Shown: piece by piece, positions 55,588 to 61,713 of the stretch
Position numbering within the stretch: position 1 is the first letter of the stretch
Layout: every line of letters begins with the position of its first letter
Assembly: GCA_965215515.1 (NCBI GenBank)
Contig: OZ244057.1
Location: forward strand, 1,152,001 to 1,216,000
Reading direction: 5' to 3'
DNA: 64,000 nucleotides
Source of the DNA: Oligoflexales bacterium
GTDB taxonomy: Bacteria > Bdellovibrionota_B > Oligoflexia > Oligoflexales > JAPPIL01
Notes under the pieces: generated by a model
What the model was told of the DNA's origin: nothing
The model's database searches: none
Seen by the model: only the letters and a program-made list of their open reading frames with translations
Program-made: the position numbers and the translations under genes

Positions 55588-56067
55588 TCACCAGCGGTAG
55601 TGAGCAAAGGCCTTGTTGGCCTCCGCCATTTTGTGTACTTCTTCCTTCTTTTTGATCGTCGGCCCGCGCCGATGTGCGGCATCGATCAGCTCGGCGGAGA
55701 GTTTTTCCATGATACTGCGTCCCGCACGTTTGCGGGCGAAACCGATCAACCACCTGATAGCCAGAGCACGGCGACGATCGGGCTTTACTTCGATAGGAAT
55801 CTGGTAGTTCGAGCCACCTACCCGCCGTGATTTAACTTCCAGCACGGGTTTAGCGTTCTCTACGGCGGTTTCGAACAACTGCAACGGAGTTTGAAACCCT
55901 TCTCCACCGCGCGCTGCGATCAGATCGAGTGCACCGTAAAAAGCCTTCTCCGCACAGGATTTTTTGCCATCCAGCATCATGCAGTTGATGAACTTCGCCA
56001 CCAACTCCTGCTTGTACTTGGGATCGGGGAGAATCTCACGTTTGTCCGCTACCCTGCGTCGTGCCAT
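55588..56067 (-). CDS. rpsG: 30S ribosomal protein S7
   Basis: [28 protein letters not shown]. Confidence 0.98.
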
Positions 56068-56072
56068 GTGTG

Positions 56073-56447
56073 CTAACCCTTCGCACGTTTTGTGCCGTAT
56101 TTACTGCGTCCGCGCTTGCGTTTCTCCACTCCCGAGGTGTCCATCGACCCGCGCACGACGTGATAGCGTACCCCTGGCAAGTCCTTGACCTTACCGCCGC
56201 GAATCAGCACCACCGAGTGTTCTTGCAAGTTGTGGCCTTCGCCACCGATGTAGGAGGTCACCTCAGTGCCGTTCGACAGGCGTACCCTCGCCACTTTACG
56301 CAGCGCCGAATTCGGCTTCTTGGGTGTGGTGGTGTAGACGCGCACGCACACCCCCCGTCTTTGCGGGCAGCGCTCCAGCGCGGGACACTTGGCACGTGCT
56401 TTCAGCTGTTTGCGCCCCTTGCTGATAATCTGACTGATGGTCGGCAC
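56073..56447 (-). CDS. rpsL: 30S ribosomal protein S12
   Basis: GTG start [23 protein letters not shown]. Confidence 0.98.
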
Positions 56448-56545
56448 TGACTGTCTCTCATCGGCTAACAGACGCAGGTGTTTACTAGAGTGGGACGCAA
56501 GTTGCAACAGATTTTTTCAGTGCTCTTCCCTTGTCGGTGTGGGTG

Positions 56546-57607
56546 CTACTCCGTGTCATCCCAGGCGATGATGACCTTACCGCTCTTACCGCAGCGCATC
56601 TGCTCGAACGCGGTGCGGAATTCTCGTCGCGGGTAACGATGTGTGATAACGGGGGCGATGTCAAGACCGCTCTGCAACATGCTGGTCACTTTGTACCAAG
56701 TGTCGAACATTTTGCGTCCGAAGATGCCGCGCATAGTGATCCCTTTGAGAATGATGTCGTTCCAATCGACGGAGAAAGGTTGCTTGAAGATACCCAGCAA
56801 CGCCACCTTTGCTCCGTGTTTCAGACAACCGAGCATCTGCCGTAGTGCGTCTGCGTTGCCAGACATCTCGCAACCGATATCGAAGCCCTCCTGCATGCCG
56901 AGCTGTTGCATGACCGTTTGCATCTCAACCTGCGCGGCGTTTACGGCCTGTGTTGCCCCCATTTTTTTCGCTAACTGCAAACGTTCGGGGTTGATATCGG
57001 TGGTGACGACATGGCGTGCCCCGACGTGACGAGCGATGGCGGTGACCATCAAGCCGATCGGCCCCGCTCCCGTTACCAGTACGTCCTCTCCGACGAGATC
57101 GAATTCCAGTGCGGTGTGCGCGGCGTTACCGAGCGGATCGTAGATGGCTGCGACCTCCGCGTCGATTCCCGTGCCGATACGGTACACGTTCTGACGGGGC
57201 AAAAGGATGAAGTCGGCAAACGCCCCAGCCCGCTCCACCCCTACTCCGCACGGGCGGATACAGAGATGCCGCTTGCCCGCCAGACAATTACGACAACGCG
57301 CACAGGTGATGTGTCCTTCGCCCGTGACCAACTGTCCTACCGTGAGGTCATCGATGCCTGTACCACACGCCGCAACCTTGCCGACGAACTCATGCCCCAC
57401 GACCAGCGGGATAGGCAGGGTTTTCTGTGCCCACGCGTCCCAATTCCAGATGTGAATATCCGTGCCACAGATGGCGACCTTGCACACCTTGATCAACACT
57501 TCCTGTGCCGCAGGTAAGCCAGGCAGCGGGACTTCCCGCAACTGCAAACCCACCTCGGCTCGCTCCTTCACCAACGCTTGCATTTTCCGCATCTCATCCC
57601 AGCTCAA
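56546..57607 (-). CDS. tdh: L-threonine 3-dehydrogenase
   Basis: ICGTDIHIWNWDAWAQ, GHE, GEGHITC, GFDIG.EMSG, GRKMFDTWY; true start probably a few codons in. Confidence 0.93.
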   Translation of the reverse strand: MSWDEMRKMQALVKERAEVGLQLREVPLPGLPAAQEVLIKVCKVAICGTDIHIWNWDAWAQKTLPIPLVVGHEFVGKVAACGTGIDDLTVGQLVTGEGHITCARCRNCLAGKRHLCIRPCGVGVERAGAFADFILLPRQNVYRIGTGIDAEVAAIYDPLGNAAHTALEFDLVGEDVLVTGAGPIGLMVTAIARHVGARHVVTTDINPERLQLAKKMGATQAVNAAQVEMQTVMQQLGMQEGFDIGCEMSGNADALRQMLGCLKHGAKVALLGIFKQPFSVDWNDIILKGITMRGIFGRKMFDTWYKVTSMLQSGLDIAPVITHRYPRREFRTAFEQMRCGKSGKVIIAWDDTE

Positions 57608-57691
57608 CGGTGAACTGGGACAGGCTAGTGAAGCTCACAGAGTATGTCAAGCGACCGCTTTCTCTTCGTCGTGGGTGCGAGGTCATGCTGG

Positions 57692-58594
57692 CTACGGTAT
57701 GCCCGTGAGGACTGTCTTCTGGCGCGCAGAAAGGTCAGGTAATCCCGCGAAAGCCGCTAAAGGGTAGCGGGGTGGCTTTTGGAAAGGATTAGCGATAAAG
57801 CTTGTATAGGTCATATAACGATAGAGCAGAATATGCCGCATACCTTTCTGGAGACGGCTACCGTAGTGAAAACAACGTGAGGTATCGACGAACACCGCAG
57901 TACCTTTGCGGCCTGTAATACTCACGACAGCCGTGTCGGGATCGAGCAAGCTATACATGTCTGCATCGGGAATACGACGACGGTTGTGCCAGTTGTAGCG
58001 CAGCTTACGCCGTACTCGCTGCGAGAGGGGCGCGGGAATGAGACACAGAGGGCCGTTGTCAGCATTAATATCGTCGAGAAAGATAAACACCTTGATCTGG
58101 TAAGTGTCTGAATGATCGAGATGCCAGAGCTGACTACCCTTTCTCGGGGCAGTGCCCGCGGGCAACGAGCGCCAGATAAAGATATAGGGCAGCACGGGAA
58201 TGTGTCCTAAATAATGGGCAACAGGGACGACAAGCTCGTCGGACAAACCGTAGCGCAGGATGGCACGCTGTGCGATCAGATCATGGGGCAGCAGAATACT
58301 GCGCAGAAACCCGTTACCTTCCAGAGAATAATCCACCGCAACATCTCGCTGAGCGACGATCTGCACAGCACTCTCGATAGCCCGTGTCCGCAACTCAGAG
58401 GTCGGTGGCAGAACGAGGTAACCACGCGCACCGATACTATGCTTCGTCTCGGGCAAAGCGGACAGTAGCCGCTTGCCCGCGGCTATCCTCGACCGACAAA
58501 ACGAATACGCCGCGAGCTTATAAAGCCCGCGGCGTAGATTACCCTGAAAGAAATGATTGCCAGGACTGCGACGCAGACTATCCAGCAACGACAA
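57692..58594 (-). CDS. PhyH-like Fe(II)/2-oxoglutarate dioxygenase
   Basis: SQLWHLD, IKVFIFLDDI...NGPL, GT..FVDT..CFHYGSR; HxD...H triad. Confidence 0.8.
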   Translation of the reverse strand: MSLLDSLRRSPGNHFFQGNLRRGLYKLAAYSFCRSRIAAGKRLLSALPETKHSIGARGYLVLPPTSELRTRAIESAVQIVAQRDVAVDYSLEGNGFLRSILLPHDLIAQRAILRYGLSDELVVPVAHYLGHIPVLPYIFIWRSLPAGTAPRKGSQLWHLDHSDTYQIKVFIFLDDINADNGPLCLIPAPLSQRVRRKLRYNWHNRRRIPDADMYSLLDPDTAVVSITGRKGTAVFVDTSRCFHYGSRLQKGMRHILLYRYMTYTSFIANPFQKPPRYPLAAFAGLPDLSARQKTVLTGIP

Positions 58595-58599
58595 GTGCG

Positions 58600-58887
58600 C
58601 TACTCGTTACCAGTGTAGTCACACCCGCCTGCACAGTACTGAGTGTAGCTACCCGCGTAGACACTGCCAAGCTCCTCAACGCTGGTGACGGGCGAACTCG
58701 GCAGCACGAGATGTTTCGTCGTCTCACTGTCCTTCACCAAATTGATCGTCTTGCCTTCGGGCACAGGAATCCCCGCCTTGCGCAACTCAGCGGCGGGATC
58801 ACCATCGACCTGTCGGGCAAAGCCAGCATCGCCATGGTAGCGCGCCACAAACTCTACCCATTTTTGATTCGTTTCCGAAGTAGCCAT
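58600..58887 (-). CDS. NHLP (nitrile hydratase-like leader) RiPP precursor peptide
   Basis: AAGGAGG RBS; VAR...D..F......DP.A.L...GI.VPEG..I..V.D......LVLP; EELGSVYAG leader end; core SYTQYCAGGCDYTGNE. Confidence 0.8.
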   Translation of the reverse strand: MATSETNQKWVEFVARYHGDAGFARQVDGDPAAELRKAGIPVPEGKTINLVKDSETTKHLVLPSSPVTSVEELGSVYAGSYTQYCAGGCDYTGNE

Positions 58888-58909
58888 AACACACCCTCCT
58901 TAAAAAAAT

Positions 58910-58960
58910 TAAAAAAAACAGGAAAAAGCCCTCTCTTCCCTGTCACGGGGAGGAGAGCCA
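58910..58960 (-). terminator. Terminator-like hairpin plus U tract just upstream of the precursor RBS
   Basis: Minus strand CTCTCCTCCC-cgtgaca-GGGAAGAGAG then GGCTTTTTCCTGTTTTTTTT. Confidence 0.45.
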
Positions 58961-59202
58961 CACAGCCCAGCCCTCCGTGATCCCTACTCACGAGAGTACT
59001 CAGCCCTATAACACGTAGTCTACCACACCCGCCCCGCGACAATCTAGGAGAACCCCTGACCCGCAGACAAACGGCGGCATCTACACAGCCTAACCTCCGC
59101 CACACTCCCTATCGTAAGGTTCAAGGCGGTATTTTACCCAAACACGCAACAAACTGCTATTAAAAATAAAATCGCGGGTGTTTTTAAATGAGGAAGCGGC
59201 AA

Positions 59203-59901
59203 CTAACCCGCCTCGAAGGTAATGCCGAGTGCGTAGCTGCGGCGGCTGAAGTCGGGGCCGCGTGAGCGCAAGAGCTCCGCCCGCCTCAGTTGCAGGGACA
59301 GGTAGACATTGGTGATGTCGAAGCCGCGCTGCAAGGCTCGCATAGCCCTTTTCTCCAGCCCGCGCAGCGAAACACCTATCCCTGCCTGCATCACCCCGTA
59401 CGGATGCCAGGCCCTGTTGAGGAGAGGGGAGTCGTTCTCCATATCGCCGCTACCGACACGCAACTCCTGCCCGTAAAGATACTCCAGCCCGATGCCGAGA
59501 TCGAGGCTGACCCATTCTCCCAGCGGTTTGAGGGCGGTGAGCAGGAGTACCCGTGCAGGCACGAAAGTTAGGCGTGTTTCTTCCTCCTCATCACGCCTGA
59601 CCGTCCCCCCTTCGACACGTGCCGCCACTCCTCCGTCCTGATACCAGTCAAGCCCGAAACCCACCCCGAGCGCAAATACCCTAGTATACACAGGTAGATA
59701 AGCCGCGGCCGCAACCCCTAGACACCAACTCGTGCCGCGATAAAGCTTCCCGTAGTGCTGCAATTCCCCCGTGAACGTCGGCTTCTGCACGACAAAACCA
59801 ACCCGCTGCACATGCTGGGCAAAGAGAGCGAAGAACGGTTGCCGCACAGCCTCAACCCGCGTCGCCCACAGCATAAGCAACACTAGCCCTAAGTTGCGCA
59901 T
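59203..59901 (-). CDS. Putative outer-membrane beta-barrel protein
   Basis: Signal peptide; alternating strands; terminal YALGITFE. Confidence 0.6.
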   Translation of the reverse strand: MRNLGLVLLMLWATRVEAVRQPFFALFAQHVQRVGFVVQKPTFTGELQHYGKLYRGTSWCLGVAAAAYLPVYTRVFALGVGFGLDWYQDGGVAARVEGGTVRRDEEEETRLTFVPARVLLLTALKPLGEWVSLDLGIGLEYLYGQELRVGSGDMENDSPLLNRAWHPYGVMQAGIGVSLRGLEKRAMRALQRGFDITNVYLSLQLRRAELLRSRGPDFSRRSYALGITFEAG

Positions 59902-60917
59902 CGTCTCTGTGCCAAAATTTTCGTCAGAATTTGCACCGCGTTGGTTGCCGCACCCTTCTTAAGGTTGTTGGCGATGATAAAACACTGCACCCAACGACTG
60001 CGTTCCTCACCGTAGGGCAGACGTACCCGCGTCACCCATACCCGTGATGACGCGGCCACACGACGTGGGGTCGGCAGCTGGGCGTGATCGTCAGCACTGG
60101 CCAACTCCAAGCCCTCCTGATCCCACAAGCATGCCAACGCTTCCGCACGGGTCACCTCCCGTTCCAGCTCGACCGTCACCGCCTCGCTGTGTCCGTGATA
60201 GACGGGGACACGCACCGTCGTGGCACGCACCCGCAGGCGCGGCAGCGCAAGGATACGGCGCGTCTCAGCAACCACCTTCACCTCTTCAAAACAGTGCCCC
60301 GCGGCATCGAAACGATCGATCGCCGCCAGCACGTTGCCCGCAATCCGCTGTGCAAATACCTGCGGCCGCGCCCGTTCGTCGTGCAACTGCTGCTGCAACT
60401 CCGCCACCGCCCTCTGCCCCGCTCCCGATACCGCCTGATAGGTAGCGACATCGACCGCTTGCAAGCCAAACTCACGCCGCAAAGCCGCCAACACCACCAC
60501 CAACTGAATAGTCGCACAGTTGGGATTGGCCACGATGCGACACACCGTGTTATCCAGTAACGCCGCGTTGACCTCGGGCACGACCAACGGCACGTCGGTA
60601 TCCATCCTGAACGCACTGCTGTTATCGACGAGTATAGCATTTTTCGCCGCCAGCTGTCTGCCATAGCGCCGCGCAAAATCCCCTCCCGCGCTCAGCAGCA
60701 CGGCATCAAAACCCTCACAACAGGAAGGACGGGCAAACGCACGCACGCGCAACTGCCGTGCGCCAAAAGATAACCGCTGCCCTTCCGAACGCGACGAAGC
60801 GAAAGCAGTCACATGTCGAAACCCCGCCGCGGCGAGGTCGAGCAACATCTGCTGTCCCACCGCTCCCGTAGCTCCGATCACCGCAACACGTGCGGTCTGG
60901 TGTACCTCAGTCGCCAT
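59889..60917 (-). CDS. asd: Aspartate-semialdehyde dehydrogenase
   Basis: GATGAVG, DNSSAFRM, ANPNC, TYQAVSGAG, RVPV..GHSE, KGAATNAVQI. Confidence 0.95.
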   Translation of the reverse strand: MATEVHQTARVAVIGATGAVGQQMLLDLAAAGFRHVTAFASSRSEGQRLSFGARQLRVRAFARPSCCEGFDAVLLSAGGDFARRYGRQLAAKNAILVDNSSAFRMDTDVPLVVPEVNAALLDNTVCRIVANPNCATIQLVVVLAALRREFGLQAVDVATYQAVSGAGQRAVAELQQQLHDERARPQVFAQRIAGNVLAAIDRFDAAGHCFEEVKVVAETRRILALPRLRVRATTVRVPVYHGHSEAVTVELEREVTRAEALACLWDQEGLELASADDHAQLPTPRRVAASSRVWVTRVRLPYGEERSRWVQCFIIANNLKKGAATNAVQILTKILAQRRCAT

Positions 60918-61713
60918 CGTCATCACCTGTATGCGGGAAAAGATCGTCATCGATCGCGAGTTTTTTCCAACCGCACAACCACTCGAGCAACCCGCTCAAA
61001 CCATAACAAACACCGAGCACAAACGCCCACACCGCAGGACGATAGGCGATAACACCGAGCACGATGATCGCCAGCACGAGCAGCTTGAAGGGTTTGATCG
61101 CCCTGATGTCGAGTGACTTGTGCGAGCGATAGGCGACGTTAGAGACCATCGCGAGCGACAACACCAGTGTCAAAACCAAACAACTGTAGTTGATCGTCAG
61201 TGGCGCGGTGATGAACCCCGCTAGCTGCGACAAAAATAACAAAGGGGCATCGCCACTGCTTTGCAAATCCGCGATGAAGATAACATAACCTGCCAAAATC
61301 AACGCGGCCATCGGAATGGGCAGACCCGTAAAATCGTGTGAACTCTTGCCCTGATAACTGGCGACATTAAAACGCGCCAAACGCAATGCACCACAGGCGA
61401 GATAAATAAAACAAGCAATCCAGCCGATACGATCCATGCTGTGCAGGCTGTACTGAAAAATTAAAAAAGATGGCGCAACCCCGAACGACACCAAGTCACA
61501 CAACGAGTCGAGCTGAATACCGAACGAGCTGTGCGTCTTGGTCATTTTTGCCACCCGCCCATCGAGCACATCGAAGACCGCCGCGAGGAAGATCGCATAG
61601 GTTGCCATTTCAAACTCGCCTTTCAGCGACTTGATGACGGCATAAAAACCCCAAAACAAATTGCACGCGGTCAGCAGATTAGGCAAGACGTAGGCGGCAG
61701 TGCTGATCTTCAT
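60907..61713 (-). CDS. pssA: CDP-diacylglycerol-serine O-phosphatidyltransferase
   Basis: LPNLLT, DVLDGRVA, FG.QLDSL.D.VSFGVAP, RLARFN. Confidence 0.92.
   Translation of the reverse strand: MKISTAAYVLPNLLTACNLFWGFYAVIKSLKGEFEMATYAIFLAAVFDVLDGRVAKMTKTHSSFGIQLDSLCDLVSFGVAPSFLIFQYSLHSMDRIGWIACFIYLACGALRLARFNVASYQGKSSHDFTGLPIPMAALILAGYVIFIADLQSSGDAPLLFLSQLAGFITAPLTINYSCLVLTLVLSLAMVSNVAYRSHKSLDIRAIKPFKLLVLAIIVLGVIAYRPAVWAFVLGVCYGLSGLLEWLCGWKKLAIDDDLFPHTGDDDGD

Follow-up and report, generated by a model that had tools for sequence, protein, structure and literature searches.

The families against which this locus has to be read were defined by Haft, Basu and Mitchell in 2010 (PMC2887384): the nitrile hydratase leader peptide (NHLP) precursors, the enzymes of thiazole/oxazole-modified microcin (TOMM) biosynthesis and the export proteins. 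In its available part, that paper reports co-distribution of NHLP precursors with the export genes, the precursors of some systems being encoded far from the enzymes. Fe(II)/2-oxoglutarate (Fe/2OG) hydroxylases of NHLP/proteusin pathways are represented by PoyI (polytheonamide), PhaI (phaeornamide) and EreI, as given in the consulted part of PMC9505594. A further relevant enzyme is MppG, according to the accessible text a leader-dependent Fe/alpha-ketoglutarate hydroxylase acting on the Nif11-leader precursor MppE, which needs a long folded leader and contacts it through an N-terminal helical extension (bioRxiv 10.64898/2026.10.04.756588). Here we describe a two-gene locus on the minus strand of a 64,000-nucleotide stretch (the window, G000:C1:1152001-1216000) of the single-contig, 2.18-Mb genome of an Oligoflexales bacterium, estimated to be 93.9% complete. 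It encodes a 95-aa precursor of the NHLP type, i.e., of a peptide made on the ribosome and modified after its translation (RiPP), and a PhyH-fold Fe/2OG dioxygenase. Our preferred reading, to which we assign a probability of a little under 0.6, is a split NHLP-TOMM (thiazole/oxazole) pathway with an oxygenase of the precursor's own.

The locus resembles the NHLP-TOMM systems, as they appear in the part of PMC2887384 cited above, in three respects. Each component family is the top NCBIfam match of a gene in this genome; the precursor has a long nitrile-hydratase-like leader, a Gly-Gly-type end of homology and a Cys-rich core; and it lies at a distance from the enzymes. It departs from that scheme, as far as the same text describes it, in that the precursor comes with a PhyH-fold dioxygenase, described here as co-transcribed. 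The motif is moreover A-G instead of G-G, several scores are below cut-off, and the core is short with few heterocyclizable residues. With PoyI, PhaI and EreI, compared by description, it shares an Fe/2OG oxygenase encoded together with an NHLP-family precursor; those enzymes, in the consulted part of PMC9505594, are set in large clusters that include genes for radical SAM, LanM, arginase or methyltransferase proteins, whereas here no enzyme but the dioxygenase is encoded next to the precursor. The likeness to MppG lies in an N-terminal helical region, which in this dioxygenase (H3-45 of the structure model) bears a clade-specific motif. MppG, by its accessible description, differs in serving a Nif11 leader, in having a RiPP recognition element (RRE) and in hydroxylating the C-beta of a Trp in a lanthionine ring; no RRE was detected in the dioxygenase studied here. 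ColD, proline hydroxylase H11, HygX, SnoN, GriE and EctD have the same fold and HxD...H triad at 12-20% identity, and act on small molecules.

Set apart from these descriptions are a distinct PhyH-fold clade, related to enzymes of polysaccharide clusters; the arrangement, in which it is the dioxygenase that is kept next to the precursor and the core TOMM enzymes lie far off; and a precursor subfamily with its own short predicted cores of the form CxGGC...N. A full-text search, whose coverage leaves out most subscription journals, found no paper on the pairing of an NHLP precursor with a PhyH-type dioxygenase.

The NHLP-type precursor

An earlier note, made from the sequence of the window, had described a 95-aa open reading frame (ORF) with a strong ribosome-binding site, followed 5 nt later by a PhyH-like dioxygenase gene. 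Both minus-strand ORFs and the AGGAGG site are present as described (Table 1), with 58595-58599 separating the precursor stop from the dioxygenase TTG. By homology, the 95-aa ORF is an NHLP-type precursor. It matches TIGR03793 (leader_NHLP) with an E value of 6.2e-8 over model positions 9-74 of 77, so that the search with the NHLP model proposed in that note returned a hit. Searched exhaustively with phmmer, the database yielded 507 relatives at E<=1e-3, 17 of them at E<=1e-10, the best being 60% identical (E 1.9e-29); a word-index search, at the limit of its sensitivity, had returned the query alone among 2 candidates. A profile of 20 subfamily members matches 8tb1_A, a solved NHLP leader, with an E value of 3.5e-19; it also matches alpha chains of nitrile hydratase (6.5e-19 to about 1e-8) as well as 9cjx_A (E 6.8e-9), placing the leader with the nitrile hydratase alpha subunit and with solved NHLP leaders. 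Residues 1-79 contain no Cys, and the nitrile hydratase metal site is therefore absent.

In most small relatives the conserved part ends in VAGG, AAGG or VAAG and gives way to variable tails. The alignment, in which relatives have GG or AG, puts the corresponding motif of the precursor at A78-G79. The predicted core is consequently SYTQYCAGGCDYTGNE (16 aa), in agreement with the core that had been read after VYAG, and the leader would be cleaved at A78-G79, where the homology stops and a hypervariable core begins. The AlphaFold2 (AF2) model of the precursor has three confident helices (residues 5-19, 21-29 and 31-37), and residues 80-95 are disordered (predicted local distance difference test [pLDDT], <50). 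An alternative cut after the internal Gly-Gly of CAGG, which would release CDYTGNE and had been put forward in the earlier note, was rejected. In the leader alignment the cleavage motif falls at Y-A-G79, and related cores have CxGGC conserved within them.

The precursor is the sole TIGR03793 match in the genome. A Nif11 search of the same genome gave one 15-bit match, of a kind also seen in 10 of 14 control genomes, and none was credible. No precursor match was found in a plasmid collection.

NHLP-like N-terminal domains also occur fused to large uncharacterized C-terminal regions, in P0066, P0079 and P0082 (491-548 aa) and in a 641-aa ORF of the same-genus genome G001 (G001:C1:2467207-2467380). 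P0066 contains the NHLP-like domain twice, and P0079 and P0082 have in common an RNDLAH motif near the C terminus.

Maturation and export genes elsewhere in the genome

The earlier note had stated that no maturase or transporter is adjacent to the precursor. This holds within the window and fails for the genome as a whole, where the search that it proposed for NHLPs, C39 transporters and maturases found one NHLP, one C39 peptidase, one YcaO protein and a SagB-type dehydrogenase. The last three lie in one cluster (G000:C1:1496411-1509724) that contains both the only YcaO and the only C39 match of the genome, with the C39 gene 6.3 kb from the YcaO gene. From the precursor it is ~286 kb to the dehydrogenase gene and ~299 kb to the far end of the export cassette; the precursor is thus not clustered with the TOMM enzymes.

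The 868-aa protein of this cluster is a fused cyclodehydratase. TIGR03882 ("TOMM precursor leader peptide-binding") covers its residues 264-434 with 75.1 bits, against a cut-off of 36.9, residues 487-864 match TIGR03604, SagD, at a score just short of the cut-off (see below), and PF02624 matches with 258.7 bits, so that a YcaO domain and a leader-binding domain are combined in one protein. It is preceded by a SagB-type flavin mononucleotide-dependent dehydrogenase. TIGR03794, TIGR03796 and TIGR03797, the NHLP export models, are the top NCBIfam matches of three adjacent genes at the other end of the cluster. Between the cyclodehydratase and the ATP-binding cassette (ABC) genes there are two ORFs of 702 and 294 aa with lipoprotein-like N termini, which may be members of the pathway (immunity, processing) or unrelated to it.

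The intergenic gaps of the cluster contain no precursor-like ORF. A 93-aa ORF 5' of the HlyD-like gene, a candidate for a precursor belonging to the cluster, was set aside: no family model matches it, and it is conserved after metG, at 83-85% identity in both G001 and G002 and at 68% in G003, genomes that all lack the cluster. As for other RiPP classes, the genome has no match to the LanC-like cyclase domain (PF05147) at E<=0.01, giving no indication of a class II lanthipeptide pathway, and none to the SPASM domain (PF13186), radical SAM enzymes in general not having been searched.

The dioxygenase and its relatives

The PhyH-like assignment of the 300-aa protein made in the earlier note is borne out by several lines of evidence. 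PF05721 (PhyH) matches with 23.9 bits, above the gathering cut-off of 22, over residues 154-246 only; NCBIfam has no match. All 37 homologous sequences of an alignment keep H158, D160, H243 and R253, which by analogy would be the HxD...H iron triad and the 2OG-binding Arg. The AF2 model is confident (pLDDT 92.5; predicted template modeling score, 0.92), and its best Foldseek matches, the small-molecule enzymes listed above together with AviO1, are all of the PhyH type (probability 1.00, template modeling score 0.43-0.57), which identifies the double-stranded beta-helix fold of that group. A profile of the dioxygenase family against PDB sequences gave nothing at E<=1, and the plasmid collection yielded relatives at 23-29% identity only. 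A halogenase, which would have HxG or HxA, was rejected here, the triad being HxD; hydroxylation is the default reaction of an HxD Fe/2OG enzyme.

A word-index search found 62 relatives of the dioxygenase, of which P0002-P0011 are 49-79% identical and the remainder <=41%. In a maximum-likelihood tree of 37 sequences, a branch 1.45 long (support, 100/100) separates the query and these 10 proteins from the rest. The 11 proteins share an invariant N-terminal motif (P11, G12, F15, F16, Q17, R21, R22, Y25), of which only R22 is invariant across all 37 sequences and Y25 nearly so (>=90%).

This close clade is linked to one NHLP precursor subfamily. Pairing in other assemblies was read from an equal size of the longest contig, which suggests the same contig and is evidence at the same-contig level at best, not of adjacency. 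By this measure, 6 of the 10 close dioxygenases match a related precursor: P0003 with P0064 (98,212 bp), P0009 with P0065 (10,994 bp), P0006 with P0217 (6,927 bp), P0008 with P0215 and P0218 (2,849,281 bp), and P0010 and P0011 with P0214 and P0219 (2,558,385 bp). After the A-G/G-G motif, the predicted cores are SSGNNYCDGGCSYTGNE in P0064, DDSCEGYSCDYSCAGNE in P0217, NCGQQCSGSNCHCNTE in P0218, ACGDQCDGGSCHCNTE in P0219 and TCSCHGGCATCNG in P0065. Each of the five is short and rich in Cys, bears either CxGxC or CxGxxC and has an Asn 2-3 residues from its end.

Outside the close clade the surroundings are of another kind. The loci of distant homologues (25 from genomes and 80 from metagenomes, 105 in all) and one close copy in the genome G003 (L003) made up a set of 106, whose six-frame translations were searched by phmmer with the precursor and with a hidden Markov model built from 66 small NHLP-like proteins. 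Neither search detected an NHLP ORF near a dioxygenase homologue at any of the 106 loci, the sole scorer being the query's own locus. The earlier note had named dioxygenase homologues that are never adjacent to precursors as a finding that would refute its reading; bearing on this are the shared contig sizes in the close clade and the 0/106 in this set. We also scanned with Pfam 100 ORFs flanking the dioxygenase gene at 38 distant-homologue loci, leaving aside loci with <1.5 kb on either side, ORFs of <200 aa, ORFs that failed a filter on third-position GC content (GC3) and the near-duplicate loci L027, L028, L049, L084 and L092. Sulfotransferases were found at 11 of the 38 loci, Capsule_synth at 7, Polysacc_synt flippases at 5 and ABC-2/ABC transporters at 3, with at least one such type at 21/38. 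The wider dioxygenase family thus belongs to polysaccharide-type clusters and not to RiPP loci.

A complex prediction for the dioxygenase with the precursor (score 0.01, mark 0.32) was not used as evidence either way.

Distribution across the phylum

The genomes of the phylum available for comparison, 131 in number, are identical to the class set. Among them, a close-clade dioxygenase occurs in two (G000, the genome studied here, and G003), the NHLP subfamily of the precursor in two (G000 and, solely as the N terminus of the 641-aa ORF, G001) and the fused cyclodehydratase in G000 alone. The same-genus genomes G001 and G002, 92% and 91% complete, have no dioxygenase, C39 domain, NHLP-type exporter or cyclodehydratase. 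The C39 domain is also missing from G003, of the same family. The best TIGR03796 matches in these three genomes reach 249-259 bits and begin no earlier than model position 186, which leaves them without the peptidase domain. The joint absence from the same-genus genomes supports a single pathway, as supportive evidence only given a small sample of related genomes.

The G003 dioxygenase is 57% identical to the query and identical to P0005; only 287 nt are visible upstream of its gene. At this locus (L003, on G003:C172), a 69-aa Cys-rich ORF (70-279), not NHLP-like, precedes the dioxygenase gene (276-1208), its stop overlapping the dioxygenase ATG (ATGA), and a helicase or restriction-type ORF follows downstream.

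A proposed split pathway and its steps

The genes, their family assignments and the link between the dioxygenase clade and the precursor subfamily are shown above; the genome contains one gene of each kind. The split pathway is favored because the precursor is of the NHLP type and the only one present, and because a single YcaO/SagB pair adjoins a single NHLP-type C39 cassette that has no precursor beside it. The earlier note had offered two interpretations: a self-sufficient minimal locus, possibly of a new RiPP class, and, as a fallback, an orphan precursor processed in trans. The former is weakened by the distant TOMM and export genes without a precursor of their own; the latter fits best.

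From this arrangement we infer that the distant enzymes act on the precursor, in an order that may be as follows. The 95-aa precursor would be overproduced from its strong ribosome-binding site, with the dioxygenase translationally coupled to it through the TTG start. The dioxygenase would oxidize one residue of the 16-aa core, most likely by side-chain hydroxylation, a candidate site being the near-C-terminal Asn kept in all related cores. Forming thiazol(in)es or oxazol(in)es from core Cys, possibly also from Ser/Thr, would be the task of the YcaO cyclodehydratase with its fused leader-binding domain and of the SagB-type dehydrogenase, whose genes lie ~286 kb away. Finally, the NHLP-type exporter (HlyD-like protein, C39-peptidase ABC protein and second ABC protein) would cut the leader after Y-A-G79 and secrete the product.

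The locus points to a previously undescribed PhyH-fold dioxygenase clade that travels with one NHLP precursor subfamily. It also illustrates how a seemingly minimal RiPP locus can mislead, with the cyclodehydratase, dehydrogenase and exporter in the same genome and outside the window. One 95-aa substrate and three enzymes make a small testable system, in which it could be asked how an Fe/2OG enzyme recognizes a folded NHLP leader and which oxidation it adds to a thiazole-type peptide. A bolder version, which we regard as rather unlikely, is that the dioxygenase clade is a dedicated peptide modifier recruited from a polysaccharide-associated lineage, with a chemistry new to RiPPs on the short CxGGC...N cores. 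Among the possible reactions would be crosslinking through C-S or C-C by oxidation, the oxidation of an intermediate that contains a thiazoline, or hydroxylation of the near-C-terminal Asn, and the outcome would define a new subclass of azole-plus-oxidation peptides across several uncultured lineages; a chemistry beyond hydroxylation would add a reaction type to RiPP biosynthesis.

Competing explanations

A number of observations weigh against the split pathway. The tie between the precursor and enzymes ~286 kb away consists of uniqueness and co-distribution only. Several scores fall below their curated or equivalog cut-offs: TIGR03793 for the precursor (32.4 versus 50.9 bits), TIGR03604 for the cyclodehydratase (217.3 versus 219.25) and all three export models (TIGR03796, 769 versus 853; TIGR03797, 513 versus 709; TIGR03794, 68 versus 156). 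Cys, Ser and Thr account for 5 of the 16 core residues. On the side of the dioxygenase, relatives of <=41% identity sit in polysaccharide clusters, a precursor on an equal-sized contig was not found for 4 of the 10 close proteins (P0002, P0004, P0005 and P0007), and the pairing elsewhere rests on equal contig size, adjacency not having been seen. G003 yielded no NHLP, C39 or cyclodehydratase match in an assembly that is 86% complete and in 280 contigs.

Some of these points would fit a self-sufficient two-gene RiPP module, in which the dioxygenase is the sole maturase, hydroxylating the core or oxidatively crosslinking the CxGGC cysteines or the tyrosines, while the distant exporter only cleaves and secretes, and the TOMM enzymes have another substrate or none. 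The few heterocyclizable residues speak for such a module, as do the tight coupling of the two genes and the contig sizes shared with the precursor subfamily by 6 of the 10 relatives, including contigs as short as 6,927 and 10,994 bp; the 2.56-Mb contig with two dioxygenases and two precursors further suggests specific pairs. Against this, the only cyclodehydratase/dehydrogenase pair of the genome would be left without another candidate substrate, this pair adjoins the very NHLP-type exporter that the module also requires, and a Cys-rich core after an NHLP leader is the classic TOMM substrate in the part of PMC2887384 available, so that we see the two-gene module as possible with the odds clearly against it. 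The polysaccharide-type neighbors at 21/38 distant-homologue loci, and the close homologue in G003 without a detected NHLP, would be expected if the adjacency were instead non-functional: the substrate of the dioxygenase would be a sugar, lipid or small molecule, probably as for its distant relatives, and the precursor would be matured by the distant TOMM and export genes alone or exported unmodified with a disulfide. We consider this improbable in view of the long, fully supported branch that splits off the close clade, its clade-specific invariant N-terminal motif, the 5-nt gene spacing, the six relatives that share longest-contig sizes with NHLP precursors, and a window in which no polysaccharide genes adjoin the dioxygenase gene. 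Very improbable, finally, is a role outside RiPP biosynthesis for the 95-aa protein, as a small nitrile-hydratase-related protein such as a regulator or partner. The sub-cut-off TIGR03793 score and the NHLP-like N termini fused in the 491-548-aa proteins and the 641-aa G001 ORF would agree with it; the homology, however, stops at the A-G/G-G motif and is followed by a short hypervariable Cys-rich tail, as is typical of NHLPs, and of the four genomes G000 to G003, only the one carrying this ORF has an NHLP-type C39 exporter.

Gene layout and surroundings of the locus

Table 1. Features of the precursor/dioxygenase locus and of the distant TOMM and export cluster
Feature	Position in window	Position in genome (G000:C1)	Strand	Basis or remark
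rpsL	56073-56507			downstream, with rpsG/fusA
tdh	56546-57607			NF003808, 513 bits; downstream of dioxygenase gene
PhyH-fold Fe(II)/2-oxoglutarate dioxygenase gene, 300 aa, TTG start	57692..58594		-	PF05721, triad, AF2/Foldseek
NHLP-type RiPP precursor gene, 95 aa + stop, ATG start	58600..58887	1210600-1210887	-	ORF, TIGR03793, relatives
Predicted core peptide, residues 80-95	58603..58650		-	after A-G cleavage-type motif
Precursor leader, residues 1-79, end V-Y-A-G	58651..58887		-	alignment with relatives
Shine-Dalgarno AGGAGG	58895..58900		-	7 nt 5' of precursor ATG; read from sequence
Terminator-like hairpin + T-run	58917..58944		-	consensus scan: 12 pairs, 4 G-C; role uncertain
Outer-membrane beta-barrel ORF, 232 aa	59203-59901			upstream; weak MXAN_2562-family match
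asd	59889-60950			upstream of beta-barrel ORF
SagB-type dehydrogenase, 490 aa		1496411-1497883	+	TIGR03605, 135.1 bits (cut-off 78.4); ThcOx, Nitroreductase Pfam domains
Fused cyclodehydratase, 868 aa		1497750-1500356	+	TIGR03882, TIGR03604, PF02624
Two lipoprotein-like ORFs, 702 + 294 aa		1500514-1503513	-	no Pfam or NCBIfam match
ABC protein, 974 aa		1503754-1506678	-	TIGR03797, 513.2 bits
C39-ABC protein, 734 aa		1506675-1508879	-	TIGR03796, 769.3 bits
HlyD-like protein, 282 aa		1508876-1509724	-	TIGR03794, 67.9 bits

The housekeeping surroundings claimed in the earlier note (asd, tdh and rpsL) are as it had them, and synteny with two genomes of the same genus breaks off here. G001 (L121) and G002 (L120), of ~3 Mb, share the order tsaB-pssA-asd-beta-barrel; after the beta-barrel gene these have an IHF/HU-like gene and RNase Y, whereas G000 continues with the precursor/dioxygenase pair, then tdh and the rpsL operon. 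The different genes at this point place the precursor/dioxygenase pair at a rearrangement breakpoint (window 56546-59901).

A spacer of 315 nt (58888-59202, minus strand) separates the beta-barrel ORF from the precursor. It folds more stably than shuffled sequences (z -2.9; 0 of 100 as stable) and could terminate the upstream gene or act as a regulated 5' leader of the precursor. The terminator-like hairpin with its T-run within this spacer stops ~17 nt 5' of the Shine-Dalgarno site. In the scanned region there are 3 terminator-type sites versus 2.1 +/- 1.3 in shuffles, so this hairpin alone is not significant. Another hairpin (58506-58536, minus strand; 14 pairs, 9 of them G-C), followed by a T-rich run, lies within dioxygenase codons 20-30. 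As a leaky terminator 3' of the precursor gene it would favor surplus precursor transcript, the scan count being near that of the shuffles. No Rfam family matched at E<=1 across 57400-59400.

In the runs examined (X1, X5 and X6), identical fragments of window 56000-60500 were found, at low depth in runs of two further studies. The fragments listed have no differing letters outside rpsL, and neither variation nor joints showed at the locus. The same organism was therefore present in at least three studies.

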